This document shows positions 12,111 through 64,000 of a stretch of DNA of 64,000 nt, one piece after another. Position numbers and translations under genes: made by a program. Each line of letters opens with the position of its first letter. Positions within the stretch are counted from its first letter, which is position 1. The stretch is from Spironucleus salmonicida (lineage: Eukaryota): assembly GCF_000497125.1 (NCBI RefSeq), contig NC_090604.1, positions 124,001 to 188,000 on the forward strand, in the 5' to 3' direction. The notes beneath the pieces are model-generated. The model ran no database searches. It was not told the DNA's origin and worked only from the letters and a program-made list of their open reading frames with translations.

Positions 12111-12413
12111 TCAAAAGAACTGTAGGAGATCAAAATCAATTTCTTACAAAATACTTAAATGTACATTGGCTAAGCGTCTGGTTGATGATATGACACCTGC
12201 ACTCTGTGCAAATGTCGTGAATGTTTCTTAATCATCGTTTAGCAGTTGCCTTACGATGTATAAACACCCAAGTTTGATAAGAATATGGTCGTCAGATATA
12301 CTCAATCTGTTATATATCCGCATTGCAACCTTAAGTTCATGTGGTGCAATAGGTCGCTTTGCTTGTTGATGATGCTTGATAGGCTCAGATAGTTCGTGTG
12401 CATGAATGATCAT
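12111..12413 (-). CDS. Hypothetical protein (100 aa)
   Basis: ORF MIIHAHELSEP... extends through TAA=Gln to TGA at 12111-12113. No recognisable motif. Confidence 0.45.
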
Positions 12414-19407: not shown

Positions 19408-20756
19408 GAATCCTGTTCGCAATCCAATCGCTTGCCGCCGAGACGCTCGGCTTCACCATTGCAAACTTTTCTTCTGACATCATAAAACTTTACTATATGG
19501 CTATTGGTACTTCAAGTAGTTTTGTAGTTGCTGATGGTGATGTCCAAACTTTACTACCCTATCTATCTATCGCCTCCCTGGTAGGCTTCCTACTCGCTTC
19601 TCTCACCTTCGCTCCTATTGTCAGCTGGATAGGCTACAAGAAGACCGGCTTAGTCGGTGCTGCTGGTGCTGCCATCTTCAATGTTCTCCTCTGCATCCCT
19701 TTCAATGTCTATTACTGGCTGGTTATGAGGCTTTTTGCAGGCTACTTCGTTGTATTGTTCTAGCAGCCCAGCATCATCATCGTGGGTGAGCACGCTGAGG
19801 CCAGTAAGAGAGGTCTCCTCGGTGTCATGTTCCAATTCAACGTCACCCTTGGGATCTTGGTTGCCTCCTTAGTCTTACTTGCCATCCGTACTTATCAAGA
19901 TACTTATAACGCGTGGTGGATCAACTTCATCGTCACCCTTATCTGGCCTCTCATGGGCTTTGTCTTGCTCTTCTTTGTACCTGATGTCAAGCCCAGAGAG
20001 GAGAAGGAAATCTCTCCCATGCTCCTGTTCAAGGAGAAGAAGTACTTCAAGGTCCTCATCCTCTCTGTCATGCTCGGCCTCAACCAGCAGTGCACCGGTA
20101 TCAATGCCGTTATCGTATACGCCACTGAGACCTTCAAAGACACCTTCAAAGATTCAACTGGCAAAACACATGCGTTGTCCTCTGTCTTCGGCTCCATCAT
20201 CATCAACGGTGTCAACTTTGTGGCCACCCTCGGCGCCCTGGCCTTCATCGAGAAGCTCGGCCGCAAGATCCTCTTATTCGGCGGCGTCGGTATTTGTTTC
20301 GCTGCACAGGTCGCCCTCATGATCAACTACATCATCACCGCACCCAACACCGCCACACCCAACACCGCCCTCCTCATCACGGCCTCCATCGTCTTCATCA
20401 TCGGGTTCGAAATTGGACCTGGTCCCATCTTCTTCGTCTTCGCCTCCGAGCTCTTCCCCGTTGAGGTAAAGTCTCTCCTGTCCTCAATCCTGCTCAGCTT
20501 CAACTACATCCCCAACATCTTCGTTGTCGTTCTGTTCCCCATCCTTACCAAGGCTGCCAAATGGTCTCCCTTCGTTACCTACTTGATCGTCATGGGAGTC
20601 ACAACCGCTGTATTGCTCTTCACCACTCCTGAGACGAAGGGCAAGACCCAGGAGGAAATCCAGATGATCCTTACCGGCTCTGCACCCGCTGCGAGCAGCG
20701 AAGCCGAGAAGGGCTCCGAGGTCAGGTTCGGCTCTGGCGTTATGACTGCTGAGTGA
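19408..20756 (+). pseudogene. Sugar porter MFS copy 2, 5'-damaged (possible pseudogene, or N-truncated protein from ATG 19497)
   Basis: Near-identical to copy 1 from 19408. The native ATG GTT TCA TTC GGA is replaced by ATT GTT TCT TGC TGA (in-frame stop at 19407-19409). It also carries a 15-nt in-frame insertion (ITAPNTATPNT). Confidence 0.7.
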
Positions 20757-28400: not shown

Positions 28401-30907
28401 AGATTTTGTCTCTGTTTGCTCTCCTCAAGTAGTTAGTTGTGTCATGCCCAGACTTCGGAGATTAGGCGCTATTCTAAAGGATAGAGCAGGTGCATTTAGG
28501 AGTTTCCTAGTAAAATAATGACGTTAAAAATATCGAAAAGATGGCAGACGAAATATCGAAGGTTGAAAATGGACAAGTAAGTTCATAAAGCAAAGACACA
28601 ATCGCGCTGATAGATTACATTGTGGGGTACATTCGTAAATTTGTAGATGACAACAAGCAGCTTTTATCAGAGGACGTCAAAGCCGTGGTTGAAAGCTAGG
28701 CTTCCAAGGACATTCTCAATCGAGACGAATCGAAAGCGTGGGGAAAACAGAAGATTTTGTCTCTGTTTGCTCTCCTCAAGTAGTTAGTTGTGTCATGCCC
28801 AGACTTCGGAGATTAGGCGCTATTCTAAAGGATAGAGCAGGTGCATTTAGGAGTTTCCTAGTAAAATAATGACGTTAAAAATATCGAAAAGATGGCAGAC
28901 GAAATATCGAAGGTTGAAAATGGACAAGTAAGTTCATAAAGCAAAGACACAATCGCGCTGATAGATTACATTGTGGGGTACATTCGTAAATTTGTAGATG
29001 ACAACAAGCAGCTTTTATCAGAGGACGTCAAAGCCGTGGTTGAAAGCTAGGCTTCCAAGGACATTCTCGATCGAGATGAGTCGGAACCGTGGGGAAAACA
29101 GAAAATTTTGTCTATATTTGCTCTTCTTGTGCAACTAGTTGTGTTCTATCCAGATTTATAGAAATTTATAGAATTATATATTCAAGCATTATCGAATAAG
29201 TCTGAGTAAAAGTATGTTTTATAGAGTAATAACAATCTTTTATTACTAGTAGACGAAGTTTTGCATTAATAAAATATAAGACGAGAAAAAAATCAAACTA
29301 ATATTTTAAATAAGTATGAACAATATCTTAGATTAGATAATCCTTTGGATTATTTGTTGTTATTAGTTTAAAATTCACCATCAATAACACATTAAAGAGA
29401 TTTAGAAAGTATCAAGAGTCACTATACTAATTTGATTACTGAGAATGGTAAGTTTCATGGGTTATTCTTATTCATATAGGAACTATATAATTTAAGATCC
29501 ATAGAGTCTATATTTTGGAGAAACATCACTCATTATTTATAGAATAATCGAAATGGCCAAACAGACTAAATTCTGATTACAAATCAATGTATATATTCTG
29601 GAACTGATATGTCCTTATTCAATTTTATAAAAGTTAATAAGATTTAGTAACATTTTTATTCTAGCGGAACCTCTTTAGAATATTAACATGGCAGAATTAT
29701 TGGGTTACCATATCCTCATGTTACATTATGCAAATAGTTAAATACTAACTAGGAAATAATTATTGCACTAGCTACGGATGAGTTTTTATAAAGTTATTGT
29801 AGATCATTAGCATAAATTAATTATACTGATTACTATAATATTTAATGTCCTGAAAATTCGTTACTAAAATAACTTTATTTACCACTTATATCGCCATAAT
29901 TATGGTTATGTCCAAATAAAAGAGAATAATCTGTGCAGTTATCTTTCAATTCTTTGACTAAACTAAAAATTAACAATCAATATTCATATTTTATAAATAA
30001 ATAAAGTTGCTTTAATAAATATTTTGAAATTAAAAAAGTTAAAACAGCAATCTAATATCATATCAATCTTGAGGAATAGGTGAAATCGACTTTATTAACT
30101 ACTTCTTCTGGGTATATTAATTTAAAATATATTGCAGTGTTTTATTATTTAGTATAACAGCAGTTCGATGAGTTAATTATTAATATCGATATTTTGAGTA
30201 TAAAATAATTATTAGTTTAATAGAAGCTTCAATATTTGACAGAAATTAATGCTTTATTATTATTCTTGTATACAATTGTTAAAAATGAAAATGTTTTGTC
30301 TAAATTTAAATTGATCTTATAAGAATAAAAATTGTGTTCAATGTATTTTAGTATTGTCGGTAGCTTTATTTCATAGAGAGAATCAATGGATTTACTAAAA
30401 GAGGTATGCTAAGGCTCTAACTTTATATTATTACAATAACCTTTTGACGATTTTATTTATGAAAATACTAGTTTCAGTTAATTTTAATAAAATATTCGAG
30501 CTTATGGTGTTAATTATTCGAAACTAGTTTTTGAATCACTAAAGCAAACAAAATAGATAAAAACCTTAATTTGCGCTATCTCTATTGATAAATAGAAGTT
30601 TTTTTCTAAATTTTTAAAGATTGACTAAAAACACCCTGACTTTTTAGTTACTTTTCATGGGTTTGAGGGTCTAGAATAAATAATGAATGTTTAAGATGGA
30701 GTTTATTATGTTTCATATGATTCTGGTAATCATAGCTACGTTGGTTTACATGAAAAAACTAAAAACATTTCTAGGTCTATTATTTAAGTAGGACCAAATT
30801 AATCAGATGTTTTGTTGAATTTTTCAGAAATTAAATTCAATTAGTAATTATTGGTTAAATAAGTAGAGGAACTAAATTAATTTTTGAATAGTCTTAATCA
30901 AAAGTGA
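22460..30907 (+). CDS. Giant hypothetical protein (~2815 aa) with 117-aa tandem repeats
   Basis: Frame 2 had no TGA in every segment I translated from ATG 22460 to AAG TGA at 30905-30907 (spot-checked, not every codon). Repeat spacings of 351, 480 and 3090 nt all preserve frame. Confidence 0.8.
24225..26487 (+). repeat. Intragenic 351-bp tandem repeat, block 1
   Basis: CAAAGACACAATCGCGCTG recurs at 24448, 24799, 25279, 25630, 25981 and 26332. One unit is interrupted by unique sequence at about 24890-25098. Confidence 0.95.
27315..29130 (+). repeat. Intragenic 351-bp tandem repeat, block 2
   Basis: Same anchor at 27538, 27889, 28240, 28591 and 28942. The leader 27315-27537 duplicates 24225-24447 (offset 3090). 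Confidence 0.95.
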
Positions 30908-50859: not shown

Positions 50860-52260
50860 TGCGGTAATTTGGAGCGGATTGTAATTAATTTAAATAACAT
50901 ATTATTATATATTTAACAGACAATAAATATTTTACTTTTTACTAAATAATTAAATATTAATCTAGCGTATAGGAAAGTTAATATTTGTAAAAAATAAAAT
51001 TAAGATCAGGAGCCTAAATCTTAGTTTCGCCATAGTTCTAACAGTTGTCTCGAACAGAATTATGGTTACCATTCAATTTCAAGTATGCATATAGTTTCTG
51101 TTGAATATTGTAGTTCTAAGCCTTTTATCAATTACCATATAATTTATCTTATACTAAGAGCATATTTTCATATTATTATATACTTAGAATCAGGTATCAG
51201 TATTTGAGTAATAAAAATCTAATATAATTAATTATATTTTCCATTGTTTTATTTTCTATCCATGTTTCCTAGCAAAACTTCATAGTAAATTATCAAAATC
51301 TAATTCACAAAATTCTGATGCAAAACTAATTAAGCTATAATAATAATGAAAATCAAATTTTCAGTTTCTACATAGCGGCCCAGTCATTCTTGTAGTCATC
51401 TTCGCTGTAGTATAAATCAAATTCTACTAGCTCGGTGAAAAGCATTTCTAGCTTAACGAGCTCAACATCTTGGATCCCACTCACAGCACAGATTTATTTT
51501 ACCCATACGTACTTGTCATTGAAAAATTTATTTAGTAACTGGAAGGATACTGTGACGAGCTTCTGCCAGGAATATGGATTGATGGAAAAATCAATTCGCT
51601 TATTCAGTCTGGTAATAAGCATATACGCTTATAGAAGCTATTCATCGCAGATGTGGCAACGGGTGAGAAGCCTGTTGACAAACTTTTGGACGACCTCTAG
51701 CGAAGGGGAAGGGGCAGTTTAGGACAGGAATACAGAATACTAAGATTATGCAATACGTCGTAGTTCCTGCTTATTTGGAGGTAATTTTATCTGATTATAG
51801 ATTAACTCTGCAAAAAACTATGGGTTCATTCAAATTTTGGAAGGGAGCATACTACTATTTATCGTATTATATTGTATACATTTGCAAATGCACGCAAAAA
51901 ATAATATTAATATACTCATATAACTTATCATATTATCAAACTCCCGATATCTTGCCGGCTGAGAATATCAGGAATACTCGACCTGATACAGCATCAAACG
52001 CCTGTTCTTTTTCTTGAAATAATCAAAGTAATTCAATAATATCAATCTGAACATATTGGTAAGATGGTACAGTACTTTTGCATTTCTCGTTAATTTGGAA
52101 AAAATAAGCCTTTCTGACTTGCAGAAAATGCATCTGAGACCTTCATTAGCACGTACACTGTCTCAAGAGCAGAATTTGAAGCCGCGGACCCCGGGCGCTG
52201 GGCGGGTGCTGGGAAGCGGGCCCGCCCATCCCGAGGCGGGCGGTGCGCGAGAAAGATAAA

Positions 52261-52376
52261 ATTCGGCACAGCTCTTTCCCTCGTAGTCTCCCAGCGAAGT
52301 ACTCAATACTGCCAGGTCAGGCTTCACTTCACAATTTGGAACAAGATGTGGTGTTTAACTGACTGTATGACCGAAT
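52261..52376 (-). rRNA. 5S rRNA copy 1
   Basis: Minus strand ATTCGGTCATACAGTCAGTTAAACACCACATCTTGTTCCAAATTGTGAAGTGAAGCCTGACCTGGCAGTATTGAGTACTTCGCTGGGAGACTACGAGGGAAAGAGCTGTGCCGAAT then TTT. Helix I ATTCGG/CCGAAT, helix II CAGTCAG/CTGACCTG, helix III with AA bulge, box A-like AGTGAAGC, loop E AGTA and box C-like TGGGAGAC, oligo-T terminator. Confidence 0.92.
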
Positions 52377-52473
52377 CGAGAGTACTGGGGCGTGGCCGCG
52401 GACCCGGGCGCTGGGCGGGTGCTGGGAAGCGGGCCCGCCCATCCCGAGGCGGGCGGTGCGCGAGAAAGATAAA

Positions 52474-52589
52474 ATTCGGCACAGCTCTTTCCCTCGTAGT
52501 CTCCCAGCGAAGTACTCAATACTGCCAGGTCAGGCTTCACTTCACAATTTGGAACAAGATGTGGTGTTTAACTGACTGTATGACCGAAT
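52474..52589 (-). rRNA. 5S rRNA copy 2
   Basis: Identical to copy 1, offset +213. Confidence 0.92.
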
Positions 52590-53022
52590 CGAGAGTACTG
52601 GGACGGCCGGAAAGAAGGGGCGCCTCGCGCTGTTACTTTGCGACGCTTCCCGTGAGGCGCTAGCTCGAAGTGGGCCACGAGATGCTTCAGCTACCGCCCT
52701 GGGAAGCCAAGGTGAAAGTGCGTGGCTAAAGTTTGGGACGTACCAAGCCACTACGAAGTGGGAGTGAGACAGCATACTTAGGGGAGGCGCTGTGAAGGCA
52801 GATGACGGAGAAGTGACGGCTGCCCTTTCTAGCGTTTGGTTAGCTTGGGTGCATAGCCTCTGCTGGTAGATTTTGTTATAGGTGCAGTTAGTAAAAGCTA
52901 ATGCTAGGGCTAGGCAATTAATAGAATAAATACTGCCGAAACGTATAAATAAATCATTAGCATAGCTTATCAGCCAGCTAGAGTGGAGGGACGTGAGGGC
53001 GCTATAAATCAAGTAGGGTCAC

Positions 53023-54249
53023 TCAGATCTCATTCCTCTGCACGAGGGGGAGCTCGGTGTGCATTCTCTGCTTCCTGCTGCGCACGGCGAAGGCCACGAC
53101 ACCGATGACCGCGGTCAGGGCGACGACACCGCCGAGGACGGCACCGATGGTGGCGGCCTGGGAGGCTCTGTTGGCGGGCGCGACGCACTGGTGGGCCTGG
53201 AAGAGGTAGCCGGGTCTGCACGCGGCGCAGTAGCGCTCGTCGCAGGACAGGCACCCCTCGGGGCAGGCGGCGCACTGGCCGGTGGTGGTCTGGCGGAAGC
53301 CGACCTCGCACTCGTTGCAGGAGTCGCCGCTCTGGACCTTGCAGTTGGCGATGCCGCCGGGGACGACTGGTGGAGGCGTGGGAGGGTTCACCGAGCCGCA
53401 GGAGCTGGCGTCGGCACAGACCCCGGCTGGGGTGAGGTAGAAGCCGAGCCCGCAACCGAGGCACTCGGAGGTGCTGCAGATGGCGCAGCCCTCGGCGCAG
53501 GGGACGCAGAGCCCGTTGGTGAGGGCGTGACCGGGGTGGCACACGAGGCAGCCGTCGGCGCCCTCGATCTGACAGGAGTTGGGCTTGGGCACGCATACGT
53601 TGTCCTGGACGGCGAGGCCTTCCTTGCACACGACGCACTTTTCTTCGTACTGGAAGTCGCAGTTGGCGACGGCGGCGAAGCAGTTGCCGCCCTGCTGGAC
53701 GAAGCCTGGGATGCAAGTGGTGCAGCCGGAGGCATCGGAGGATGCGCAGAGGGAAGGGTTGGTGACGCAGGTGTTGTTCATGACGGCGAAGCCCTCGCGG
53801 CAGTTGACACACTTCTCCTCGTACTGGTAGTCGCAGTTCTTCACGCCGGCGTAGCAGTTGCCGTTGGTGTTGGAGTAGCCAGGCTTGCAGCTGATGCAGC
53901 CCTCGGGGGTGTTGGTCTCGCAGAAGGCGGGGTTGGTGACGCACTTGTTGCCGGCGTTGGCCATGCCGTCCTTGCACACGACGCACTTCTCCTCGTACTG
54001 GAACTCGCAGTTGGCGACAGCCGCGAAGCAGTTGCCGTCCTGTTCGACGTGGCCGGGCTTGCAGGTGGCGCAGCCGTCGATGCCCTGAACGGAGCAGAGG
54101 GCGGGGTTGGTGACGCACTTGTTGTCGGCGACGGCGAAGCCCTCGCGGCAGTTGATGCAGGTGGCCTCGTACTGGAACTCGCAGTTCTTGATGTTGGGGA
54201 TGCAGGTGTTGTTCTCACGGTGGGTGTTGGTCGGGCAGGTCGCGCTCAT
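53023..54249 (-). CDS. Cysteine-rich membrane protein (VSP/CRMP-like), array copy 1, 408 aa
   Basis: Likely start MSATCPTN at 54249. Four 58-aa CxxC-rich repeats, TM IGAVLGGVVALTAVIGVVAFAV, tail RSRKQR, TGA followed by GTGA. Confidence 0.9.
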   Translation of the reverse strand: MSATCPTNTHRENNTCIPNIKNCEFQYEATCINCREGFAVADNKCVTNPALCSVQGIDGCATCKPGHVEQDGNCFAAVANCEFQYEEKCVVCKDGMANAGNKCVTNPAFCETNTPEGCISCKPGYSNTNGNCYAGVKNCDYQYEEKCVNCREGFAVMNNTCVTNPSLCASSDASGCTTCIPGFVQQGGNCFAAVANCDFQYEEKCVVCKEGLAVQDNVCVPKPNSCQIEGADGCLVCHPGHALTNGLCVPCAEGCAICSTSECLGCGLGFYLTPAGVCADASSCGSVNPPTPPPVVPGGIANCKVQSGDSCNECEVGFRQTTTGQCAACPEGCLSCDERYCAACRPGYLFQAHQCVAPANRASQAATIGAVLGGVVALTAVIGVVAFAVRSRKQRMHTELPLVQRNEI

Positions 54250-54436
54250 TGGTAGTGGAGTGGGCGGGTCGGATCGGGGGTATAATACGGTATTAGGCCG
54301 ATAATCTATTTCGGGCCGAGTTAGAATAGGTGGAGCGGAGTTGGATTGCCTTGGGTATCCGCGCCATCGTGCAGAATACCCGGCCGGGTGGAAGGGCGGA
54401 CCCATCCCGAGGCGGGCGGTGCGCGAGAAAGATAAA

Positions 54437-54552
54437 ATTCGGCACAGCTCTTTCCCTCGTAGTCTCCCAGCGAAGTACTCAATACTGCCAGGTCAGGCTT
54501 CACTTCACAATTTGGAACAAGATGTGGTGTTTAACTGACTGTATGACCGAAT
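54437..54552 (-). rRNA. 5S rRNA copy 3
   Basis: Identical to copy 1. Confidence 0.92.
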
Positions 54553-54649
54553 CGAGAGTACTGGGGCGTGGCCGCGGACCCGGGCGCTGGGCGGGTGCTG
54601 GGAAGCGGGCCCGCCCATCCCGAGGCGGGCGGTGCGCGAGAAAGATAAA

Positions 54650-54765
54650 ATTCGGCACAGCTCTTTCCCTCGTAGTCTCCCAGCGAAGTACTCAATACTG
54701 CCAGGTCAGGCTTCACTTCACAATTTGGAACAAGATGTGGTGTTTAACTGACTGTATGACCGAAT
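54650..54765 (-). rRNA. 5S rRNA copy 4
   Basis: Identical to copy 1. Confidence 0.92.
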
Positions 54766-54862
54766 CGAGAGTACTGGGGCGTGGCCGCGGACCCGGGCGC
54801 TGGGCGGGTGCTGGGAAGCGGGCCCGCCCATCCCGAGGCGGGCGGTGCGCGAGAAAGATAAA

Positions 54863-54978
54863 ATTCGGCACAGCTCTTTCCCTCGTAGTCTCCCAGCGAA
54901 GCACTCAATACTGCCAGGTCAGGCTTCACTTCACAATTTGGAACAAGATGTGGTGTTTAACTGACTGTATGACCGAAT
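54863..54978 (-). rRNA. 5S rRNA copy 5 (variant AGTGCT)
   Basis: One substitution at 54902. Confidence 0.88.
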
Positions 54979-55411
54979 CGAGAGTACTGGGACGGCCGGA
55001 AAGAAGGGGCGCCTCGCGCTGTTACTTTGCGACGCTTCCCGTGAGGCGCTAGCTCGAAGTGGGCCACGAGATGCTTCAGCTACCGCCCTGGGAAGCCAAG
55101 GTGAAAGTGCGTGGCTAAAGGTTGGGACGTACCAAGCCACTACGAAGTGGGAGTGAGACAGCATACTTAGGGGAGGCGCTGTGAAGGCAGATGACGGAGA
55201 AGTGACGGCTGCCCTTTCTAGCGTTTGGTTAGCTTGGGTGCATAGCCTCTGCTGGTAGATTTTGTTATAGGTGCAGTTAGTAAAAGCTAATGCTAGGGCT
55301 AGGCAATTAATAGAATAAATACTGCCGAAACGTATAAATAAATCATTAGCATAGCTTATCAGCCAGCTAGAGTGGAGGGACGTGAGGGCGCTATAAATCA
55401 AGTAGGGTCAC

Positions 55412-56638
55412 TCAGATCTCATTCCTCTGCACGAGGGGGAGCTCGGTGTGCATTCTCTGCTTCCTGCTGCGCACGGCGAAGGCCACGACACCGATGACCG
55501 CGGTCAGGGCGACGACACCGCCGAGGACGGCACCGATGGTGGCGGCCTGGGAGGCTCTGTTGGCGGGCGCGACGCACTGGTGGGCCTGGAAGAGGTAGCC
55601 GGGTCTGCACGCGGCGCAGTAGCGCTCGTCGCAGGACAGGCACCCCTCGGGGCAGGCGGCGCACTGGCCGGTGGTGGTCTGGCGGAAGCCGACCTCGCAC
55701 TCGTTGCAGGAGTCGCCGCTCTGGACCTTGCAGTTGGCGATGCCGCCGGGGACGACTGGTGGAGGCGTGGGAGGGTTCACCGAGACGCAGGAGCTGGCGT
55801 CGGCACAGACCCCGGCTGGGGTGAGGTAGAAGCCGAGCCCGCAACCGAGGCACTCGGAGGTGCTGCAGATGGCGCAGCCCTCGGCGCAGGGGACGCAGAG
55901 CCCGTTGGTGAGGGCGTGACCGGGGTGGCACACGAGGCAGCCGTCGGCGCCCTCGATCTGGCAGGAGTTGGGCTTGGGCACGCATACGTTGTCCTGGACG
56001 GCGAGGCCTTCCTTGCACACGACGCACTTTTCTTCGTACTGGAAGTCGCAGTTGGCGACGGCGGCGAAGCAGTTGCCGCCCTGCTGGACGAAGCCTGGGA
56101 TGCAAGTGGTGCAGCCGGAGGCATCGGAGGATGCGCAGAGGGAAGGGTTGGTGACGCAGGTGTTGTTCATGACGGCGAAGCCCTCGCGGCAGTTGACACA
56201 CTTCTCCTCGTACTGGAAGTCGCAGTTCTTCACGCCGGCGAAGCAGTTGCCGTTGGTGTTGGAGTAGCCAGGCTTGCAGCTGATGCAGCCCTCGGGGGTG
56301 TTGGTCTCGCAGAAGGCGGGGTTGGTGACGCACTTGTTGCCGGCGTTGGCCATGCCGTCCTTGCACACGACGCACTTCTCCTCGTACTGGAACTCGCAGT
56401 TGGCGACAGCCGCGAAGCAGTTGCCGTCCTGTTCGACGTGGCCGGGCTTGCAGGTGGCGCAGCCGTCGATGCCCTGAACGGAGCAGAGGGCGGGGTTGGT
56501 GACGCACTTGTTGTCGGCGACGGCGAAGCCCTCGCGGCAGTTGATGCAGGTGGCCTCGTACTGGAACGCGCAGTTCTTGATGTTGGGGATGCAGGTGTTG
56601 TTCTCACGGTGGGTGTTGGTCGGGCAGGTCGCGCTCAT
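55412..56638 (-). CDS. CRMP array copy 2 (4 amino-acid differences)
   Basis: As copy 1, with E>A, Y>F, Y>F and G>V. Confidence 0.9.
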   Translation of the reverse strand: MSATCPTNTHRENNTCIPNIKNCAFQYEATCINCREGFAVADNKCVTNPALCSVQGIDGCATCKPGHVEQDGNCFAAVANCEFQYEEKCVVCKDGMANAGNKCVTNPAFCETNTPEGCISCKPGYSNTNGNCFAGVKNCDFQYEEKCVNCREGFAVMNNTCVTNPSLCASSDASGCTTCIPGFVQQGGNCFAAVANCDFQYEEKCVVCKEGLAVQDNVCVPKPNSCQIEGADGCLVCHPGHALTNGLCVPCAEGCAICSTSECLGCGLGFYLTPAGVCADASSCVSVNPPTPPPVVPGGIANCKVQSGDSCNECEVGFRQTTTGQCAACPEGCLSCDERYCAACRPGYLFQAHQCVAPANRASQAATIGAVLGGVVALTAVIGVVAFAVRSRKQRMHTELPLVQRNEI

Positions 56639-56825
56639 TGGTAGTGGAGTGGGCGGGTCGGATCGGGGGTATAATACGGTATTAGGCCGATAATCTATTT
56701 CGGGCCGAGTTAGAATAGGTGGAGCGGAGTTGGATTGCCTTGGGTATCCGCGCCATCGTGCAGAATACCCGGCCGGGTGGAAGGGCGGACCCATCCCGAG
56801 GCGGGCGGTGCGCGAGAAAGATAAA

Positions 56826-56941
56826 ATTCGGCACAGCTCTTTCCCTCGTAGTCTCCCAGCGAAGTACTCAATACTGCCAGGTCAGGCTTCACTTCAAAAT
56901 TTGGAACAAGATGTGGTGTTTAACTGACTGTATGACCGAAT
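56826..56941 (-). rRNA. 5S rRNA copy 6 (helix III variant)
   Basis: One substitution at 56897. Confidence 0.88.
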
Positions 56942-57374
56942 CGAGAGTACTGGGACGGCCGGAAAGAAGGGGCGCCTCGCGCTGTTACTTTGCGACGCTT
57001 CCCGTGAGGCGCTAGCTCGAAGTGGGCCACGAGATGCTTCAGCTACCGCCCTGGGAAGCCAAGGTGAAAGTGCGTGGCTAAAGGTTGGGACGTACCAAGC
57101 CACTACGAAGTGGGAGTGAGACAGCATACTTAGGGGAGGCGCTGTGAAGGCAGATGACGGAGAAGTGACGGCTGCCCTTTCTAGCGTTTGGTTAGCTTGG
57201 GTGCATAGCCTCTGCTGGTAGATTTTGTTATAGGTGCAGTTAGTAAAAGCTAATGCTAGGGCTAGGCAATTAATAGAATAAATACTGCCGAAACGTATAA
57301 ATAAATCATTAGCATAGCTTATCAGCCAGCTAGAGTGGAGGGACGTGAGGGCGCTATAAATCAAGTAGGGTCAC

Positions 57375-58601
57375 TCAGATCTCATTCCTCTGCACGAGGG
57401 GGAGCTCGGTGTGCATTCTCTGCTTCCTGCTGCGCACGGCGAAGGCCACGACACCGATGACCGCGGTCAGGGCGACGACACCGCCGAGGACGGCACCGAT
57501 GGTGGCGGCCTGGGAGGCTCTGTTGGCGGGCGCGACGCACTGGTGGGCCTGGAAGAGGTAGCCGGGTCTGCACGCGGCGCAGTAGCGCTCGTCGCAGGAC
57601 AGGCACCCCTCGGGGCAGGCGGCGCACTGGCCGGTGGTGGTCTGGCGGAAGCCGACCTCGCACTCGTTGCAGGAGTCGCCGCTCTGGACCTTGCAGTTGG
57701 CGATGCCGCCGGGGACGACTGGTGGAGGCGTGGGAGGGTTCACCGAGCCGCAGGAGCTGGCGTCGGCACAGACCCCGGCTGGGGTGAGGTAGAAGCCGAG
57801 CCCGCAACCGAGGCACTCGGAGGTGCTGCAGATGGCGCAGCCCTCGGCGCAGGGGACGCAGAGCCCGTTGGTGAGGGCGTGACCGGGGTGGCACACGAGG
57901 CAGCCGTCGGCGCCCTCGATCTGGCAGGAGTTGGGCTTGGGCACGCATACGTTGTCCTGGACGGCGAGGCCTTCCTTGCACACGACGCACTTTTCTTCGT
58001 ACTGGAAGTCGCAGTTGGCGACGGCGGCGAAGCAGTTGCCGCCCTGCTGGACGAAGCCTGGGATGCAAGTGGTGCAGCCGGAGGCATCGGAGGATGCGCA
58101 GAGGGAAGGGTTGGTGACGCAGGTGTTGTTCATGACGGCGAAGCCCTCGCGGCAGTTGACACACTTCTCCTCGTACTGGTAGTCGCAGTTCTTCACGCCG
58201 GCGTAGCAGTTGCCGTTGGTGTTGGAGTAGCCAGGCTTGCAGCTGATGCAGCCCTCGGGGGTGTTGGTCTCGCAGAAGGCGGGGTTGGTGACGCACTTGT
58301 TGCCGGCGTTGGCCATGCCGTCCTTGCACACGACGCACTTCTCCTCGTACTGGAACTCGCAGTTGGCGACAGCCGCGAAGCAGTTGCCGTCCTGTTCGAC
58401 GTGGCCGGGCTTGCAGGTGGCGCAGCCGTCGATGCCCTGAACGGAGCAGAGGGCGGGGTTGGTGACGCACTTGTTGTCGGCGACGGCGAAGCCCTCGCGG
58501 CAGTTGATGCAGGTGGCCTCGTACTGGAACTCGCAGTTCTTGATGTTGGGGATGCAGGTGTTGTTCTCACGGTGGGTGTTGGTCGGGCAGGTCGCGCTCA
58601 T
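57375..58601 (-). CDS. CRMP array copy 3
   Basis: Protein identical to copy 1. Confidence 0.9.
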   Translation of the reverse strand: MSATCPTNTHRENNTCIPNIKNCEFQYEATCINCREGFAVADNKCVTNPALCSVQGIDGCATCKPGHVEQDGNCFAAVANCEFQYEEKCVVCKDGMANAGNKCVTNPAFCETNTPEGCISCKPGYSNTNGNCYAGVKNCDYQYEEKCVNCREGFAVMNNTCVTNPSLCASSDASGCTTCIPGFVQQGGNCFAAVANCDFQYEEKCVVCKEGLAVQDNVCVPKPNSCQIEGADGCLVCHPGHALTNGLCVPCAEGCAICSTSECLGCGLGFYLTPAGVCADASSCGSVNPPTPPPVVPGGIANCKVQSGDSCNECEVGFRQTTTGQCAACPEGCLSCDERYCAACRPGYLFQAHQCVAPANRASQAATIGAVLGGVVALTAVIGVVAFAVRSRKQRMHTELPLVQRNEI

Positions 58602-58788
58602 TGGTAGTGGAGTGGGCGGGTCGGATCGGGGGTATAATACGGTATTAGGCCGATAATCTATTTCGGGCCGAGTTAGAATAGGTGGAGCGGAGTTGGATTG
58701 CCTTGGGTATCCGCGCCATCGTGCAGAATACCCGGCCGGGTGGAAGGGCGGACCCATCCCGAGGCGGGCGGTGCGCGAGAAAGATAAA

Positions 58789-58904
58789 ATTCGGCACAGC
58801 TCTTTCCCTCGTAGTCTCCCAGCGAAGTACTCAATACTGCCAGGTCAGGCTTCACTTCACAATTTGGAACAAGATGTGGTGTTTAACTGACTGTATGACC
58901 GAAT
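58789..58904 (-). rRNA. 5S rRNA copy 7
   Basis: Identical to copy 1. Confidence 0.92.
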
Positions 58905-59001
58905 CGAGAGTACTGGGGCGTGGCCGCGGACCCGGGCGCTGGGCGGGTGCTGGGAAGCGGGCCCGCCCATCCCGAGGCGGGCGGTGCGCGAGAAAGATAA
59001 A

Positions 59002-59117
59002 ATTCGGCACAGCTCTTTCCCTCGTAGTCTCCCAGCGAAGTACTCAATACTGCCAGGTCAGGCTTCACTTCACAATTTGGAACAAGATGTGGTGTTTAAC
59101 TGACTGTATGACCGAAT
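59002..59117 (-). rRNA. 5S rRNA copy 8
   Basis: Identical to copy 1. Confidence 0.92.
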
Positions 59118-59550
59118 CGAGAGTACTGGGACGGCCGGAAAGAAGGGGCGCCTCGCGCTGTTACTTTGCGACGCTTCCCGTGAGGCGCTAGCTCGAAGTG
59201 GGCCACGAGATGCTTCAGCTACCGCCCTGGGAAGCCAAGGTGAAAGTGCGTGGCTAAAGGTTGGGACGTACCAAGCCACTACGAAGTGGGAGTGAGACAG
59301 CATACTTAGGGGAGGCGCTGTGAAGGCAGATGACGGAGAAGTGACGGCTGCCCTTTCTAGCGTTTGGTTAGCTTGGGTGCATAGCCTCTGCTGGTAGATT
59401 TTGTTATAGGTGCAGTTAGTAAAAGCTAATGCTAGGGCTAGGCAATTAATAGAATAAATACTGCCGAAACGTATAAATAAATCATTAGCATAGCTTATCA
59501 GCCAGCTAGAGTGGAGGGACGTGAGGGCGCTATAAATCAAGTAGGGTCAC

Positions 59551-60777
59551 TCAGATCTCATTCCTCTGCACGAGGGGGAGCTCGGTGTGCATTCTCTGCT
59601 TCCTGCTGCGCACGGCGAAGGCCACGACACCGATGACCGCGGTCAGGGCGACGACACCGCCGAGGACGGCACCGATGGTGGCGGCCTGGGAGGCTCTGTT
59701 GGCGGGCGCGACGCACTGGTGGGCCTGGAAGAGGTAGCCGGGTCTGCACGCGGCGCAGTAGCGCTCGTCGCAGGACAGGCACCCCTCGGGGCAGGCGGCG
59801 CACTGGCCGGTGGTGGTCTGGCGGAAGCCGACCTCGCACTCGTTGCAGGAGTCGCCGCTCTGGACCTTGCAGTTGGCGATGCCGCCGGGGACGACTGGTG
59901 GAGGCGTGGGAGGGTTCACCGAGCCGCAGGAGCTGGCGTCGGCACAGACCCCGGCTGGGGTGAGGTAGAAGCCGAGCCCGCAACCGAGGCACTCGGAGGT
60001 GCTGCAGATGGCGCAGCCCTCGGCGCAGGGGACGCAGAGCCCGTTGGTGAGGGCGTGACCGGGGTGGCACACGAGGCAGCCGTCGGCGCCCTCGATCTGA
60101 CAGGAGTTGGGCTTGGGCACGCATACGTTGTCCTGGACGGCGAGGCCTTCCTTGCACACGACGCACTTTTCTTCGTACTGGAAGTCGCAGTTGGCGACGG
60201 CGGCGAAGCAGTTGCCGCCCTGCTGGACGAAGCCTGGGATGCAAGTGGTGCAGCCGGAGGCATCGGAGGATGCGCAGAGGGAAGGGTTGGTGACGCAGGT
60301 GTTGTTCATGACGGCGAAGCCCTCGCGGCAGTTGACACACTTCTCCTCGTACTGGTAGTCGCAGTTCTTCACGCCGGCGTAGCAGTTGCCGTTGGTGTTG
60401 GAGTAGCCAGGCTTGCAGCTGATGCAGCCCTCGGGGGTGTTGGTCTCGCAGAAGGCGGGGTTGGTGACGCACTTGTTGCCGGCGTTGGCCATGCCGTCCT
60501 TGCACACGACGCACTTCTCCTCGTACTGGAACTCGCAGTTGGCGACAGCCGCGAAGCAGTTGCCGTCCTGTTCGACGTGGCCGGGCTTGCAGGTGGCGCA
60601 GCCGTCGATGCCCTGAACGGAGCAGAGGGCGGGGTTGGTGACGCACTTGTTGTCGGCGACGGCGAAGCCCTCGCGGCAGTTGATGCAGGTGGCCTCGTAC
60701 TGGAACTCGCAGTTCTTGATGTTGGGGATGCAGGTGTTGTTCTCACGGTGGGTGTTGGTCGGGCAGGTCGCGCTCAT
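59551..60777 (-). CDS. CRMP array copy 4
   Basis: Protein identical to copy 1. Confidence 0.9.
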   Translation of the reverse strand: MSATCPTNTHRENNTCIPNIKNCEFQYEATCINCREGFAVADNKCVTNPALCSVQGIDGCATCKPGHVEQDGNCFAAVANCEFQYEEKCVVCKDGMANAGNKCVTNPAFCETNTPEGCISCKPGYSNTNGNCYAGVKNCDYQYEEKCVNCREGFAVMNNTCVTNPSLCASSDASGCTTCIPGFVQQGGNCFAAVANCDFQYEEKCVVCKEGLAVQDNVCVPKPNSCQIEGADGCLVCHPGHALTNGLCVPCAEGCAICSTSECLGCGLGFYLTPAGVCADASSCGSVNPPTPPPVVPGGIANCKVQSGDSCNECEVGFRQTTTGQCAACPEGCLSCDERYCAACRPGYLFQAHQCVAPANRASQAATIGAVLGGVVALTAVIGVVAFAVRSRKQRMHTELPLVQRNEI

Positions 60778-60964
60778 TGGTAGTGGAGTGGGCGGGTCGG
60801 ATCGGGGGTATAATACGGTATTAGGCCGATAATCTATTTCGGGCCGAGTTAGAATAGGTGGAGCGGAGTTGGATTGCCTTGGGTATCCGCGCCATCGTGC
60901 AGAATACCCGGCCGGGTGGAAGGGCGGACCCATCCCGAGGCGGGCGGTGCGCGAGAAAGATAAA

Positions 60965-61080
60965 ATTCGGCACAGCTCTTTCCCTCGTAGTCTCCCAGCG
61001 AAGTACTCAATACTGCCAGGTCAGGCTTCACTTCACAATTTGGAACAAGATGTGGTGTTTAACTGACTGTATGACCGAAT
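60965..61080 (-). rRNA. 5S rRNA copy 9
   Basis: Identical to copy 1. Confidence 0.92.
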
Positions 61081-61177
61081 CGAGAGTACTGGGGCGTGGC
61101 CGCGGACCCGGGCGCTGGGCGGGTGCTGGGAAGCGGGCCCGCCCATCCCGAGGCGGGCGGTGCGCGAGAAAGATAAA

Positions 61178-61293
61178 ATTCGGCACAGCTCTTTCCCTCG
61201 TAGTCTCCCAGCGAAGTACTCAATACTGCCAGGTCAGGCTTCACTTCACAATTTGGAACAAGATGTGGTGTTTAACTGACTGTATGACCGAAT
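61178..61293 (-). rRNA. 5S rRNA copy 10
   Basis: Identical to copy 1. Confidence 0.92.
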
Positions 61294-61726
61294 CGAGAGT
61301 ACTGGGACGGCCGGAAAGAAGGGGCGCCTCGCGCTGTTACTTTGCGACGCTTCCCGTGAGGCGCTAGCTCGAAGTGGGCCACGAGATGCTTCAGCTACCG
61401 CCCTGGGAAGCCAAGGTGAAAGTGCGTGGCTAAAGTTTGGGACGTACCAAGCCACTACGAAGTGGGAGTGAGACAGCATACTTAGGGGAGGCGCTGTGAA
61501 GGCAGATGACGGAGAAGTGACGGCTGCCCTTTCTAGCGTTTGATTAGCTTGGGTGCATAGCCTCTGCTGGTAGATTTTGTTATAGGTGCAGTTAGTAAAA
61601 GCTAATGCTAGGGCTAGGCAATTAATAGAATAAATACTGCCGAAACGTATAAATAAATCATTAGCATAGCTTATCAGCCAGCTAGAGTGGAGGGACGTGA
61701 GGGCGCTATAAATCAAGTAGGGTCAC

Positions 61727-62953
61727 TCAGATCTCATTCCTCTGCACGAGGGGGAGCTCGGTGTGCATTCTCTGCTTCCTGCTGCGCACGGCGAAGGCCA
61801 CGACACCGATGACCGCGGTCAGGGCGACGACACCGCCGAGGACGGCACCGATGGTGGCGGCCTGGGAGGCTCTGTTGGCGGGCGCGACGCACTGGTGGGC
61901 CTGGAAGAGGTAGCCGGGTCTGCACGCGGCGCAGTAGCGCTCGTCGCAGGACAGGCACCCCTCGGGGCAGGCGGCGCACTGGCCGGTGGTGGTCTGGCGG
62001 AAGCCGACCTCGCACTCGTTGCAGGAGTCGCCGCTCTGGACCTTGCAGTTGGCGATGCCGCCGGGGACGACTGGTGGAGGCGTGGGAGGGTTCACCGAGC
62101 CGCAGGAGCTGGCGTCGGCACAGACCCCGGCTGGGGTGAGGTAGAAGCCGAGCCCGCAACCGAGGCACTCGGAGGTGCTGCAGATGGCGCAGCCCTCGGC
62201 GCAGGGGACGCAGAGCCCGTTGGTGAGGGCGTGACCGGGGTGGCACACGAGGCAGCCGTCGGCGCCCTCGATCTGGCAGGAGTTGGGCTTGGGCACGCAT
62301 ACGTTGTCCTGGACGGCGAGGCCTTCCTTGCACACGACGCACTTTTCTTCGTACTGGAAGTCGCAGTTGGCGACGGCGGCGAAGCAGTTGCCGCCCTGCT
62401 GGACGAAGCCTGGGATGCAAGTGGTGCAGCCGGAGGCATCGGAGGATGCGCAGAGGGAAGGGTTGGTGACGCAGGTGTTGTTCATGACGGCGAAGCCCTC
62501 GCGGCAGTTGACACACTTCTCCTCGTACTGGTAGTCGCAGTTCTTCACGCCGGCGTAGCAGTTGCCGTTGGTGTTGGAGTAGCCAGGCTTGCAGCTGATG
62601 CAGCCCTCGGGGGTGTTGGTCTCGCAGAAGGCGGGGTTGGTGACGCACTTGTTGCCGGCGTTGGCCATGCCGTCCTTGCACACGACGCACTTCTCCTCGT
62701 ACTGGAACTCGCAGTTGGCGACAGCCGCGAAGCAGTTGCCGTCCTGTTCGACGTGGCCGGGCTTGCAGGTGGCGCAGCCGTCGATGCCCTGAACGGAGCA
62801 GAGGGCGGGGTTGGTGACGCACTTGTTGTCGGCGACGGCGAAGCCCTCGCGGCAGTTGATGCAGGTGGCCTCGTACTGGAACTCGCAGTTCTTGATGTTG
62901 GGGATGCAGGTGTTGTTCTCACGGTGGGTGTTGGTCGGGCAGGTCGCGCTCAT
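61727..62953 (-). CDS. CRMP array copy 5
   Basis: Protein identical to copy 1. Confidence 0.9.
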   Translation of the reverse strand: MSATCPTNTHRENNTCIPNIKNCEFQYEATCINCREGFAVADNKCVTNPALCSVQGIDGCATCKPGHVEQDGNCFAAVANCEFQYEEKCVVCKDGMANAGNKCVTNPAFCETNTPEGCISCKPGYSNTNGNCYAGVKNCDYQYEEKCVNCREGFAVMNNTCVTNPSLCASSDASGCTTCIPGFVQQGGNCFAAVANCDFQYEEKCVVCKEGLAVQDNVCVPKPNSCQIEGADGCLVCHPGHALTNGLCVPCAEGCAICSTSECLGCGLGFYLTPAGVCADASSCGSVNPPTPPPVVPGGIANCKVQSGDSCNECEVGFRQTTTGQCAACPEGCLSCDERYCAACRPGYLFQAHQCVAPANRASQAATIGAVLGGVVALTAVIGVVAFAVRSRKQRMHTELPLVQRNEI

Positions 62954-63140
62954 TGGTAGTGGAGTGGGCGGGTCGGATCGGGGGTATAATACGGTATTAG
63001 GCCGATAATCTATTTCGGGCCGAGTTAGAATAGGTGGAGCGGAGTTGGATTGCCTTGGGTATCCGCGCCATCGTGCAGAATACCCGGCCGGGTGGAAGGG
63101 CGGACCCATCCCGAGGCGGGCGGTGCGCGAGAAAGATAAA

Positions 63141-63256
63141 ATTCGGCACAGCTCTTTCCCTCGTAGTCTCCCAGCGAAGTACTCAATACTGCCAGGTCAG
63201 GCTTCACTTCACAATTTGGAACAAGATGTGGTGTTTAACTGACTGTATGACCGAAT
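63141..63256 (-). rRNA. 5S rRNA copy 11
   Basis: Identical to copy 1. Confidence 0.92.
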
Positions 63257-63353
63257 CGAGAGTACTGGGGCGTGGCCGCGGACCCGGGCGCTGGGCGGGT
63301 GCTGGGAAGCGGGCCCGCCCATCCCGAGGCGGGCGGTGCGCGAGAAAGATAAA

Positions 63354-63469
63354 ATTCGGCACAGCTCTTTCCCTCGTAGTCTCCCAGCGAAGTACTCAAT
63401 ACTGCCAGGTCAGGCTTCACTTCACAATTTGGAACAAGATGTGGTGTTTAACTGACTGTATGACCGAAT
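63354..63469 (-). rRNA. 5S rRNA copy 12
   Basis: Identical to copy 1. Confidence 0.92.
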
Positions 63470-63902
63470 CGAGAGTACTGGGACGGCCGGAAAGAAGGGG
63501 CGCCTCGCGCTGTTACTTTGCGACGCTTCCCGTGAGGCGCTAGCTCGAAGTGGGCCACGAGATGCTTCAGCTACCGCCCTGGGAAGCCAAGGTGAAAGTG
63601 CGTGGCTAAAGGTTGGGACGTACCAAGCCACTACGAAGTGGGAGTGAGACAGCATACTTAGGGGAGGCGCTGTGAAGGCAGATGACGGAGAAGTGACGGC
63701 TGCCCTTTCTAGCGTTTGGTTAGCTTGGGTGCATAGCCTCTGCTGGTAGATTTTGTTATAGGTGCAGTTAGTAAAAGCTAATGCTAGGGCTAGGCAATTA
63801 ATAGAATAAATACTGCCGAAACGTATAAATAAATCATTAGCATAGCTTATCAGCCAGCTAGAGTGGAGGGACGTGAGGGCGCTATAAATCAAGTAGGGTC
63901 AC

Positions 63903-64000
63903 TCAGATCTCATTCCTCTGCACGAGGGGGAGCTCGGTGTGCATTCTCTGCTTCCTGCTGCGCACGGCGAAGGCCACGACACCGATGACCGCGGTCAGGG
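63903..64000 (-). CDS. CRMP array copy 6 (3' end only, cut by window edge)
   Basis: Same TM/tail-coding sequence and TGA at 63903-63905. Confidence 0.88.
   Translation of the reverse strand, partial: LTAVIGVVAFAVRSRKQRMHTELPLVQRNEI

Follow-up and report, generated by a model that had tools for sequence, protein, structure and literature searches.

A 5S rRNA gene array that carries a cysteine-rich membrane protein gene in Spironucleus salmonicida, probably an incidental linkage

Why should a gene for a membrane protein sit in every repeat unit of a 5S rRNA gene array, and is it a working gene there or a passenger? The locus that raises this question lies at the end of a 64,000-nucleotide stretch of Spironucleus salmonicida DNA (NC_090604.1, positions 124,001 to 188,000), which we call the window. 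Linkage of 5S rDNA is known with rDNA, histone, snRNA and spliced-leader repeats, and a 5S unit carrying the gene of a parasite cysteine-rich membrane protein (CRMP) would be a new linkage type. Our analysis makes it likely that we are looking at one end of the S. salmonicida 5S rDNA locus, a compound array with a living CRMP gene, in which the linkage came about as a by-product of how the array evolves; the association of the two genes is unusual but probably incidental.

Layout of the repeat unit and its 5S genes

The array stands out by its GC content (0.59–0.61, against 0.21–0.49 elsewhere in the window) and by its repeat structure. Its left edge, at about 52181, falls within a 5S-5S spacer, and it continues past the window end at 64000. 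Tandem Repeats Finder gives a period of 213 bp with 99% match, made up of one 121-nt 5S gene and a 92-nt spacer, and the repeat units of 1963, 2176 and 2389 bp, in steps of exactly 213, vary in length solely through one, two or three copies of this cassette (successive ORF start-to-start distances are 2389, 1963, 2176 and 2176 bp, and the groups in the window hold 2, 3, 1, 2, 2 and 2 5S genes). The features are the following.

52181..64000, minus: compound 5S-CRMP tandem array, part inside the window (GC and repeat structure)
52258..52378, minus: 5S rRNA gene, RF00001 66.8 bits
52471..52591, minus: 5S rRNA gene, RF00001 66.8 bits
53023..54249, minus: CRMP gene copy 1, 408 aa and stop (ORF list)
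54434..54554, minus: 5S rRNA gene, RF00001 66.8 bits
54647..54767, minus: 5S rRNA gene, RF00001 66.8 bits
54860..54980, minus: 5S rRNA gene, variant A79G within AGUA of the loop E region, RF00001 62.2 bits
55412..56638, minus: CRMP gene copy 2, divergent (5 nt differences)
56823..56943, minus: 5S rRNA gene, variant G47T with loss of the C31-G47 pair of helix III, RF00001 61.2 bits
56944..57374, minus: spacer from CRMP stop to next 5S group, 431 nt, one example (stop context TGAGTGA)
57375..58601, minus: CRMP gene copy 3 (ORF list)
58602..58785, minus: gap from 5S terminator to CRMP ATG, 184 nt, one example of five
58786..58906, minus: 5S rRNA gene, RF00001 66.8 bits
58907..58998, minus: 5S-5S spacer, 92 nt, GC-rich (0.76), one example
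58999..59119, minus: 5S rRNA gene, RF00001 66.8 bits
59551..60777, minus: CRMP gene copy 4, same sequence as copy 1 (sequence comparison)
60962..61082, minus: 5S rRNA gene, RF00001 66.8 bits
61175..61295, minus: 5S rRNA gene, RF00001 66.8 bits
61727..62953, minus: CRMP gene copy 5 (sequence comparison)
63138..63258, minus: 5S rRNA gene, RF00001 66.8 bits
63351..63471, minus: 5S rRNA gene, RF00001 66.8 bits
63903..64000, minus: sixth CRMP copy, 3' end only, cut at window end (same C-terminus and stop)

Five successive head-to-tail units each contain 5S and a CRMP gene, all on the minus strand and with constant spacing and orientation (5/5 units), which makes the array linked (compound) 5S rDNA. 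The units are nearly identical: four of the five complete ORFs differ by at most one silent base, the 184-nt gap is the same in all five units, and the 431-nt spacer, which matches no Rfam family, shows at most one difference. An earlier sequence-only reading of the locus had proposed just such a co-oriented tandem unit with one to three 213-bp cassettes, and both points held up. It placed the last 5S about 190 bp before the ATG, correct as to the close spacing, but the measured distance is 184 nt; of its "at least 6 CRMP copies" five are whole, with 408 aa, whereas the sixth is cut to its last 98 bases.

Rfam cmscan matched RF00001 to 12 of 12 5S genes in 52181-64000, covering model positions 1–120 on the minus strand, with scores of 66.8 bits for ten copies and 62.2 and 61.2 for one each, against a gathering score of 38 bits. 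A related 5S gene (70.5 bits) was found in metagenome contigs, and in comparison with it 8 of the 39 predicted pairs are changed on both sides yet still pair, so that the three-way junction fold is kept via compensatory changes, as far as two distinct lineages can tell. All copies end in TTTT at the 3' end, where the metagenomic relative has four to six T. The number of 5S genes, the canonical fold and the oligo-T terminator were read correctly from the letters. Taken alone, the sequence has an unremarkable fold energy (z −0.89). The accompanying remark that Giardia lacks a recognisable 5S is contradicted by the Giardia WB reference paper, which lists 8, then 10 5S rRNAs (PMC7000408).

Chromosomal setting and assembly

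Genes for dynein, beta-tubulin, sugar transporters, cathepsin, a ZIP transporter and DnaJ lie in the flank of the array, where TAA and TAG stand for Gln. This codon use, and the beta-tubulin, which matches two S. salmonicida records for that protein at 100% and 99% identity, place the DNA in this species. According to a 2022 paper, S. salmonicida has 40 5S copies "in tandem array on chromosome 9" (Xu et al. 2022; PMC9509377), and since species, tandem arrangement and gene agree, that array is almost certainly the present locus. Taken together, the flank genes, the tubulin identity and the published array support a genuine chromosomal context. The sequence-only reading knew of no description of the linkage, which has to be narrowed: the 5S array itself is already in print, and the part that may be new is its interleaving with a protein gene, as a CRMP gene in each repeat unit goes unmentioned in the four places where the text of PMC9509377 speaks of chromosome 9, of an array or of interspersed genes.

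Could separate 5S and CRMP repeats have been wrongly interleaved during assembly? Long near-identical repeats are error-prone to assemble, and the older S. salmonicida assembly had only 5 5S genes (PMC9509377, Table 1). However, the 5S-gap-ORF and ORF-spacer junctions are tiled or spanned by contigs from runs of two studies, and in three runs of the second study single contigs of 1471, 1580 and 1614 nt each span 5S, gap and ORF, which argues that the adjacency is no assembly artefact. Moreover, any two unit lengths are an exact multiple of 213 bp apart, and long-read pile-ups over the largest chromosome 9 repeats were checked, according to the authors (PMC9509377). We regard a misassembly, named beforehand as something that could overturn the proposed linkage, as extremely improbable.

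The cysteine-rich membrane protein

All five complete ORFs are intact and encode 408 aa from MSATC, or 460 aa if an ATG further upstream, within the spacer, is taken as the start. The protein has 51 Cys in 408 aa (12.5%), with 15 CxxC, and a C-terminal anchor (best 19-residue Kyte-Doolittle window 2.6, residues 371–389). The AF2 model (pLDDT 80.9) is a rod of disulfide hairpins and a helix at 365–379, the latter at low pLDDT. An N-terminal hydrophobic stretch is absent, as the best 19-residue window reaches 0.23 in the 408-aa and −0.16 in the 460-aa form, so that the label "type I membrane protein" given earlier is an assumption. A signal peptide is missing across the whole S. salmonicida CRMP family (PMC3916229), which the array protein resembles in this respect.

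To which family does it belong? It is not a VSP by Giardia criteria, as it lacks the CRGKA C-terminus, a Pfam VSP domain (no Pfam family, VSP included, matches at E≤0.1) and an N-terminal signal peptide. From the definition of CRMP-1 (Xu 2014) it has the at least three CxxC/CxC and the C-terminal transmembrane domain, but not the tail motif, since [KR][KR]x[KR][KR] gives 0 regex matches after the membrane anchor, where the tail reads RSRKQRMHTELPLVQRNEI. Because this motif is missing, and CRMP-2 proteins are defined by at least three CxxC/CxC and a C-terminal transmembrane domain without the five-residue tail motif (PMC3916229), the array protein is a predicted CRMP-2 by the published definition. 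A sequence search returned 272 proteins at E≤1e-3, the best being only ~30% identical; the named proteins among the best 20 of the 272 are from Tetrahymena, Angomonas and Entamoeba or are PCSK5-like, and none is named Spironucleus. The nearest language-model clusters, a lead only, are "Cysteine-rich membrane protein 1" and VSP-bearing clusters of Fornicata (scores 0.86–0.89).

The array protein shares Cys/CxxC richness and the C-terminal membrane anchor with S. salmonicida CRMP-1 and CRMP-2 and with Giardia VSP and HCMP (PMC3916229), but those are diverse paralogues, whereas the array holds many identical copies. The label "surface antigen" given to it earlier is not borne out: both the CRMP-1 tail motif and CRGKA are lacking, and when three CRMP-1 proteins were tagged, a single one localised to the surface and flagella, while another was on the cell body and the third in structures resembling the ER (PMC3916229). 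Furthermore, ~20 near-identical copies increase dosage but add no diversity, which speaks against a part in antigenic variation; amplification of one Spironucleus CRMP as identical copies would rather point to a bulk structural or protective role.

A living gene and the origin of the linkage

The 184-nt gap contains TATTATA at −38 to −32 and a C-rich TCCACTA at −10 to −4. TCCACTA is matched at the same offset in a sugar-transporter gene, and a C-rich −10 motif is common to the neighbouring genes. A promoter with TATA and C-rich elements has been described for S. salmonicida (PMC3916229), and the gap motifs would fit it. At the other end, the stop context TGAGTGA contains an AGTGA-type signal. 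The codon bias is extreme, with a GC3 of 0.92 and CAG for Gln in 18/18 cases. At four-fold sites C makes up 79% and G 12%, against 67% C and 1% G in beta-tubulin, while C and G are about equal there in three other GC-rich window genes. The C skew of about −0.74 at these sites on the coding strand compares with −0.24 to −0.35 in the non-coding parts of the unit, which are likewise GC-rich. Since the spacers share the GC and C bias, part of the CRMP codon bias is a regional or strand effect and not expression selection.

What do the sequencing runs tell about transcription? Three runs of the second study are guessed to be RNA, none being on record as such, and the CRMP gene is in no run recorded as RNA. 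In the guessed-RNA runs, contigs cover the ORF and extend into it without interruption from a point 73 nt before a 5S gene, by way of 5S and gap. They share one variant, with six differences in two runs and five in the third (I32V, Y133F, Y141F and silent ones), and carry a single-5S upstream junction. This combination occurs in 0/5 window copies, so the contigs are no direct evidence of the window copies' own expression. In one run 5S pieces at a depth of 950–1698 end in sequencing adaptor, although contigs cannot give ends or size.

Copy 2 and its neighbourhood differ from the rest. It carries E24A, Y133F, Y141F, G285V and one silent change, it is flanked by both variant 5S genes (A79G and G47T), and a frameshifted CRMP version, P0002, is also on record. 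Four amino-acid changes against one silent, together with P0002, are compatible with relaxed constraint and lend themselves to a neutral explanation, in which the CRMP copies are silent or nearly so, stay intact only because the array is young and homogenised for its 5S genes, and make a protein with no role of its own. The shared bias of the spacers and the absence of the gene from runs on record as RNA agree with this, as does the lack of a cysteine-rich ORF beside the related 5S gene in 3/3 metagenome contigs, one of which is a 1036-bp tandem unit, too short for a CRMP-type gene. The preference for C at four-fold sites, however, far exceeds that of the spacers and is tubulin-like, the promoter-proximal motif keeps the offset seen in neighbouring genes, the five ORFs are intact and the guessed-RNA contigs cover the ORF. 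A silent passenger is, in our opinion, unlikely, and would be a mere curiosity of array dynamics. With its intact ORFs, TATA-like box, C-rich −10 motif, tubulin-like codon bias, relatives, AF2 model and spanning contigs, the CRMP gene looks alive on sequence grounds.

If the gene is alive, is its position beside 5S used? Pol III genes are known to have barrier activity in yeast. By analogy, Pol III-bound 5S genes could serve the CRMP gene as barrier, open-chromatin element or transcription entry, the 184-nt spacing and the orientation would be under selection, and CRMP output would track 5S rDNA activity. Constant spacing and orientation fit this, but homogenisation alone gives constant spacing. 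Contigs bridging 5S and ORF are unexpected for a short 5' UTR from a proximal promoter and may reflect read-through or coupling, and on the coding strand no further run of four T occurs from the 5S terminator to 127 nt past the CRMP stop. Yet a contig that covers two genes is no proof of a single transcript, TATA-like and C-rich elements are present within the gap itself, and the linkage is missing at the related 5S loci found. We consider such coupling very improbable. A bolder version, in which all 5S genes of the parasite lie in an array that also produces its most-amplified CRMP, only particular units such as the single-5S variants give mRNA, starting at or upstream of 5S, and Pol III genes gate the copies of a coat-type protein whose dosage follows 5S copy number, is improbable as well.

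We propose instead that the linkage arose as a side effect of array dynamics and is no regulatory device. The unit of ~2.2 kb consists of 1–3 5S cassettes, each with a 121-nt Pol III gene ended by a T-run terminator, then, 184 nt downstream, a separate co-directional Pol II gene for the CRMP, and then the 431-nt spacer. The CRMP, whose 408 aa are rich in cysteine, carry a C-terminal anchor and probably form a rod of furin/EGF-like hairpin repeats, would be made from a living gene that is transcribed from a promoter of its own and ends in its own poly(A) signal. Such a gene, lying beside or among 5S genes, may have been drawn into the amplified and homogenised unit, with unequal crossing-over and gene conversion amplifying and homogenising the 5S-CRMP unit and slippage at the 213-bp level altering the 5S number per unit. 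A living CRMP gene inside the array would have a high, 5S-coupled number of near-identical copies, that is, dosage and not variation. The locus would offer a natural case of Pol III and Pol II genes held 184 nt apart in ~20 near-identical copies, and is a compact place to study Pol III/Pol II interplay and GC- and C-biased evolution in homogenised arrays.

Compound arrays have parallels. The histone H4 and reverse transcriptase array on chromosome 3 of S. salmonicida (PMC9509377) likewise co-amplifies a high-demand gene with an unrelated one, but the partner genes are other ones and a Pol III gene is not among them. The histone-5S repeats of Artemia salina and Asellus aquaticus (PMC3215682) do combine Pol III 5S and Pol II genes in one homogenised tandem unit. 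There 5S is joined by a housekeeping multigene family whose products are needed in bulk, while in S. salmonicida the partner belongs to a large, fast-evolving family of cysteine-rich membrane proteins, and, unlike in those repeats, a unit can carry 1 to 3 5S genes.

Layout and uniformity of the array

The 5S rRNA genes and a cysteine-rich membrane protein (CRMP) gene share one repeat unit in the array at 52181–64000. The Rfam 5S model (RF00001) has 12 minus-strand matches from 52258 to 63471, all of them over the full model and above the gathering score of 38 (66.8 bits for ten genes, 62.2 and 61.2 for one each), which bears out the 5S identity proposed in the sequence-only reading. The minimum free energy of the single 5S sequence is not unusual (z −0.89); ordinary folding energy is common for 5S and does not count against this identity. 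The cassettes repeat with a period of 213 bp at 99% match (Tandem Repeats Finder), with 121 nt of gene and 92 nt of spacer in each. The 5S groups, which contain 2, 3, 1, 2, 2 and 2 genes, are separated by five complete ORFs on the same strand as 5S, each encoding 408 aa if read from MSATC and 460 aa if an ATG within the spacer is taken as the start, and a sixth copy (63903–64000) is cut by the window end. The interleaved array is real, and the "at least 6" CRMP copies counted earlier are five whole copies and one cut copy.

Successive ORF starts are spaced by 2389, 1963, 2176 and 2176 bp, the length differences between units being exact multiples of 213 bp. The 184 nt between the end of each group's last 5S gene and the ATG are identical in all five units, the 431-nt spacer from the CRMP stop to the next 5S group has at most one difference, and the array edge falls at about 52181, within a 5S–5S spacer. 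Among the 12 5S genes, ten have the same sequence; one variant carries A79G, which falls within AGUA in the loop E region, and the other G47T, which breaks a helix III pair. These two variants flank the divergent protein copy (55412–56638), which has five base differences, four of them protein-changing, while the remaining four ORFs are at most one silent base apart. A permissive Rfam scan of one unit revealed no further RNA family (three 5S genes and a chance-level miRNA match, E 0.65), and no tRNA gene was found across the window with ARAGORN.

The GC content of the array is 0.59–0.61, against 0.21–0.49 in the AT-rich remainder of the window. The genome paper, in the parts that concern this locus, describes a large tandem repeat on chromosome 9 and a higher GC content of duplicated regions (PMC9509377), and from the size of the chromosome 9 5S array published there, the window holds roughly one third of it.

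The array protein and the probable expression of its gene

The array protein contains 51 cysteines (12.5%) and 15 CxxC motifs, its gene has an internal repeat of 174 bp in about 3.2 copies (Tandem Repeats Finder), and its only strong hydrophobic stretch lies near the C-terminus, the N-terminus having none. We considered whether the array CRMP is a 5'-truncated copy that lacks its signal peptide and set this aside: according to the relevant section of the CRMP study, signal peptides were found in none of the CRMPs (PMC3916229), and their absence is therefore a family trait. Since the motifs and the anchor are present and the tail contains no [KR][KR]x[KR][KR] (nor CRGKA), the predicted protein fits CRMP-2 by the definitions set out in that section. 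Of three tagged CRMP-1 proteins described there, one was found on the surface and flagella, another on the cell body, and the third in ER-like structures (PMC3916229).

No Pfam family matches the array protein at E≤0.1. An exhaustive HMMER search returned 272 proteins at E≤1e-3, the true ones at about 30% identity; among the best 20 of the 272, those that bear names are a Tetrahymena surface protein, PCSK5-like proteins, an Angomonas membrane protein and an Entamoeba receptor kinase, with no Spironucleus name among these 20. AlphaFold predicts an elongated rod built from cysteine repeats that form beta-hairpins, plus a helix at 365–379 (pLDDT 80.9), and the Foldseek matches in the PDB are to EGF/furin-like repeat proteins (LRP2 EGF regions, R-spondin Fu1-Fu2 and NELL2), weak matches at TM 0.1–0.4 of target that indicate a fold class only. 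The nearest clusters in a language-model atlas, from Fornicata, bear the names cysteine-rich membrane protein 1, high cysteine protein and VSP (scores 0.86–0.89) and serve as a lead only.

The sole match in a word-index protein search was a frameshifted self-copy, P0002, a 357-aa gene call on the same 623,396-bp contig as the Spironucleus tubulin records. It is doubly frameshifted, with the frame correct at both ends and off for about 200 residues, and is either a genuine pseudogene unit or the result of homopolymer errors in a different assembly.

Several features of the array suggest that the protein gene is probably expressed. All five whole ORFs are intact. Upstream of them are TATTATA at −38 to −32 and a C-rich stretch with TCCACTA at −10 to −4; this heptamer also precedes a sugar-transporter gene in the window at the same offset, and the tubulin, ZIP and DnaJ genes have similar C-rich elements at a comparable position. 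These elements match the TATA box and C-rich −10 motif that are tied to high expression in the promoter passages of PMC3916229. The stop codon TGA is followed at once by GTGA, forming an AGTGA-type signal. Codon usage is extremely biased (GC3 0.92, with CAG for glutamine in 18 of 18 cases), and C makes up 79% and G 12% of four-fold sites, the same pyrimidine preference as in beta-tubulin (67% C, 1% G), whereas C and G are about equal in dynein, the other CRMP-like gene and a third GC-rich ORF. Against a living gene, part of this bias is regional, since non-coding sequence of the unit shares the high GC content and, on the coding strand, the skew towards C (−0.24 to −0.35); the homogenised array may owe this to biased gene conversion or to mutation linked to transcription. 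The four replacements versus one silent change in the divergent copy and the recorded frameshifted version also count against it.

Eight sequencing runs of the same organism, from two studies, contain the array stretch, none of them recorded as RNA; four (X5–X8) are RNA by guess only, and we examined one DNA run and three guessed-RNA runs. Contigs of the DNA run tile the entire stretch, while each guessed-RNA run has one contig of 1471–1614 nt that covers the ORF and continues through the 184-nt gap into a 5S gene, in two runs going 62 letters further, into spacer-type sequence. Whatever the molecule, these contigs support the adjacency and co-orientation of 5S and ORF from a second study. As evidence of transcription they are only suggestive; a contig across two genes is not proof of one transcript, and contig depths cannot rank expression. 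All three contigs share the same variant (I32V, Y133F and Y141F, plus silent changes) together with a single-5S junction, a combination absent from all five window copies, so if they are RNA, their source units lie outside the window. The spacer after the stop (57000–57365) is uncovered in the three guessed-RNA runs and covered in the DNA run; because the three come from one study, this difference is not counted as evidence. The X7 contig diverges from the window at 57473, within the membrane-anchor coding region, with 107 unlike letters following, and may represent a paralogue or array variant with another C-terminus, or a chimeric contig.

Probable origin of the compound unit, and its relatives

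This arrangement is best explained as a compound 5S rDNA unit, in which a CRMP gene next to 5S genes would have been drawn into a segment amplified and homogenised by unequal crossing-over and conversion, with slippage of the 213-bp cassette giving 1 to 3 5S genes per unit and the protein gene retaining its own promoter and poly(A) signal. Many identical copies would provide dosage rather than variation, so a role of the array CRMP in antigenic variation is unlikely. It had also been proposed from the sequence that the 5S genes could act as insulators and that CRMP dosage is coupled to 5S. Barrier activity is known for Pol III genes in yeast. Such coupling is possible, but the data favour it only through the constant 5S–CRMP spacing, for which homogenisation is a sufficient explanation, and through the contigs bridging 5S and ORF.

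Linkage of 5S to spliced-leader and snRNA genes is also known. In the histone-5S repeats of Artemia and Asellus, as treated in part of PMC3215682, 5S shares a tandem unit with protein-coding genes, similarly to the compound unit here, where the partner is a cysteine-rich membrane protein gene instead of histone genes. The same Spironucleus genome contains an array of histone H4 genes with interspersed reverse transcriptase genes, as the corresponding passage states (PMC9509377). The passages of that paper on chromosome 9, arrays and interspersed genes make no mention of a CRMP gene inside the 5S unit, the consulted portion of an rDNA review (PMC6562748) has nothing on 5S linkage, and our literature search found no paper stating the 5S-CRMP interleaving. 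As far as that search reaches, a cysteine-rich membrane protein as 5S partner is a new type of linkage; the locus itself is already in the published, annotated assembly. The earlier remark that Giardia is without a recognisable 5S does not hold, as the reference genome paper gives 8, then 10 5S genes in the pertinent section (PMC7000408).

A degenerate loop C pattern led to three metagenome contigs (L001, at 1–1177, L002 and L003) with a related 5S gene, presumably from an uncultured relative; an exact 22-mer scan of the metagenomes gave no match. The metagenome gene scores 70.5 bits and is about 80% identical to the window 5S; in the alignment of the two, 8 of 39 predicted pairs are changed on both sides with pairing kept, and a T run ends the gene in both lineages. 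The contigs are short (1.2–1.4 kb) and carry an identical 5S gene in three different contexts, the common sequence being 5S only (133–138 nt). One context is a tandem unit of 1036 bp, in which a 1.2-kb ORF cannot fit, and none of the three contigs has a cysteine-rich ORF downstream of 5S within the 0.3–0.9 kb present there. A related 5S gene with no cysteine-rich neighbour weakly suggests that the 5S-CRMP linkage may not be old.

Genes in the AT-rich flank

Reading TAA and TAG as Gln is needed to obtain long ORFs in the flank: outside the array there are 47 ORFs of at least 200 aa with this code versus 6 under the standard code. Their products include a dynein heavy chain, beta-tubulin, three sugar transporters, a cathepsin-type protease, a ZIP transporter, DnaJ and a small cysteine-rich membrane protein, and the beta-tubulin is 100% and 99% identical to two Spironucleus salmonicida beta-tubulin records. 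The gene of the small cysteine-rich protein (7191–8210 (+), 44 kb from the array) encodes a C-terminal anchor and a basic tail (…YRKRQKS…), has a GC content of 0.58 with C and G about equal at four-fold sites, and its product shows marginal similarity to the array protein (BLASTP E 0.005).

Codon usage is strongly split among the genes of this one window. At four-fold sites, beta-tubulin (16966–18366 (+)) and a sugar transporter are nearly restricted to pyrimidines, with C 0.67/0.50, T 0.28/0.33 and G 0.01/0.07, respectively, and TAA/TAG Gln codons are missing from beta-tubulin and numerous in the AT-rich cathepsin, DnaJ and ZIP genes.

Sugar-transporter paralogues and repeat-containing ORFs of the flank
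9202–10722 (−), sugar-transporter paralogue
11027–12235 (−), ORF with a QQYNNIII repeat run
19497–20756 (+), sugar-transporter paralogue
22460–30907 (+), 2815-aa ORF with 196 TAA/TAG Gln codons
39063–40409 (−), sugar-transporter paralogue

The 2815-aa ORF contains a long run of repeats of about 110–165 aa (…WGKQKILSLFALLKQLVVSCPDFGDQALF…) and has only sub-threshold Pfam matches and no known family. The QQYNNIII ORF is likely a coding-frame reading of an intergenic microsatellite-like repeat. The three sugar transporters are near-identical MFS (Sugar_tr) paralogues that share their C-terminus and lie on both strands inside 31 kb, and this trio is a local segmental duplication in the array flank.
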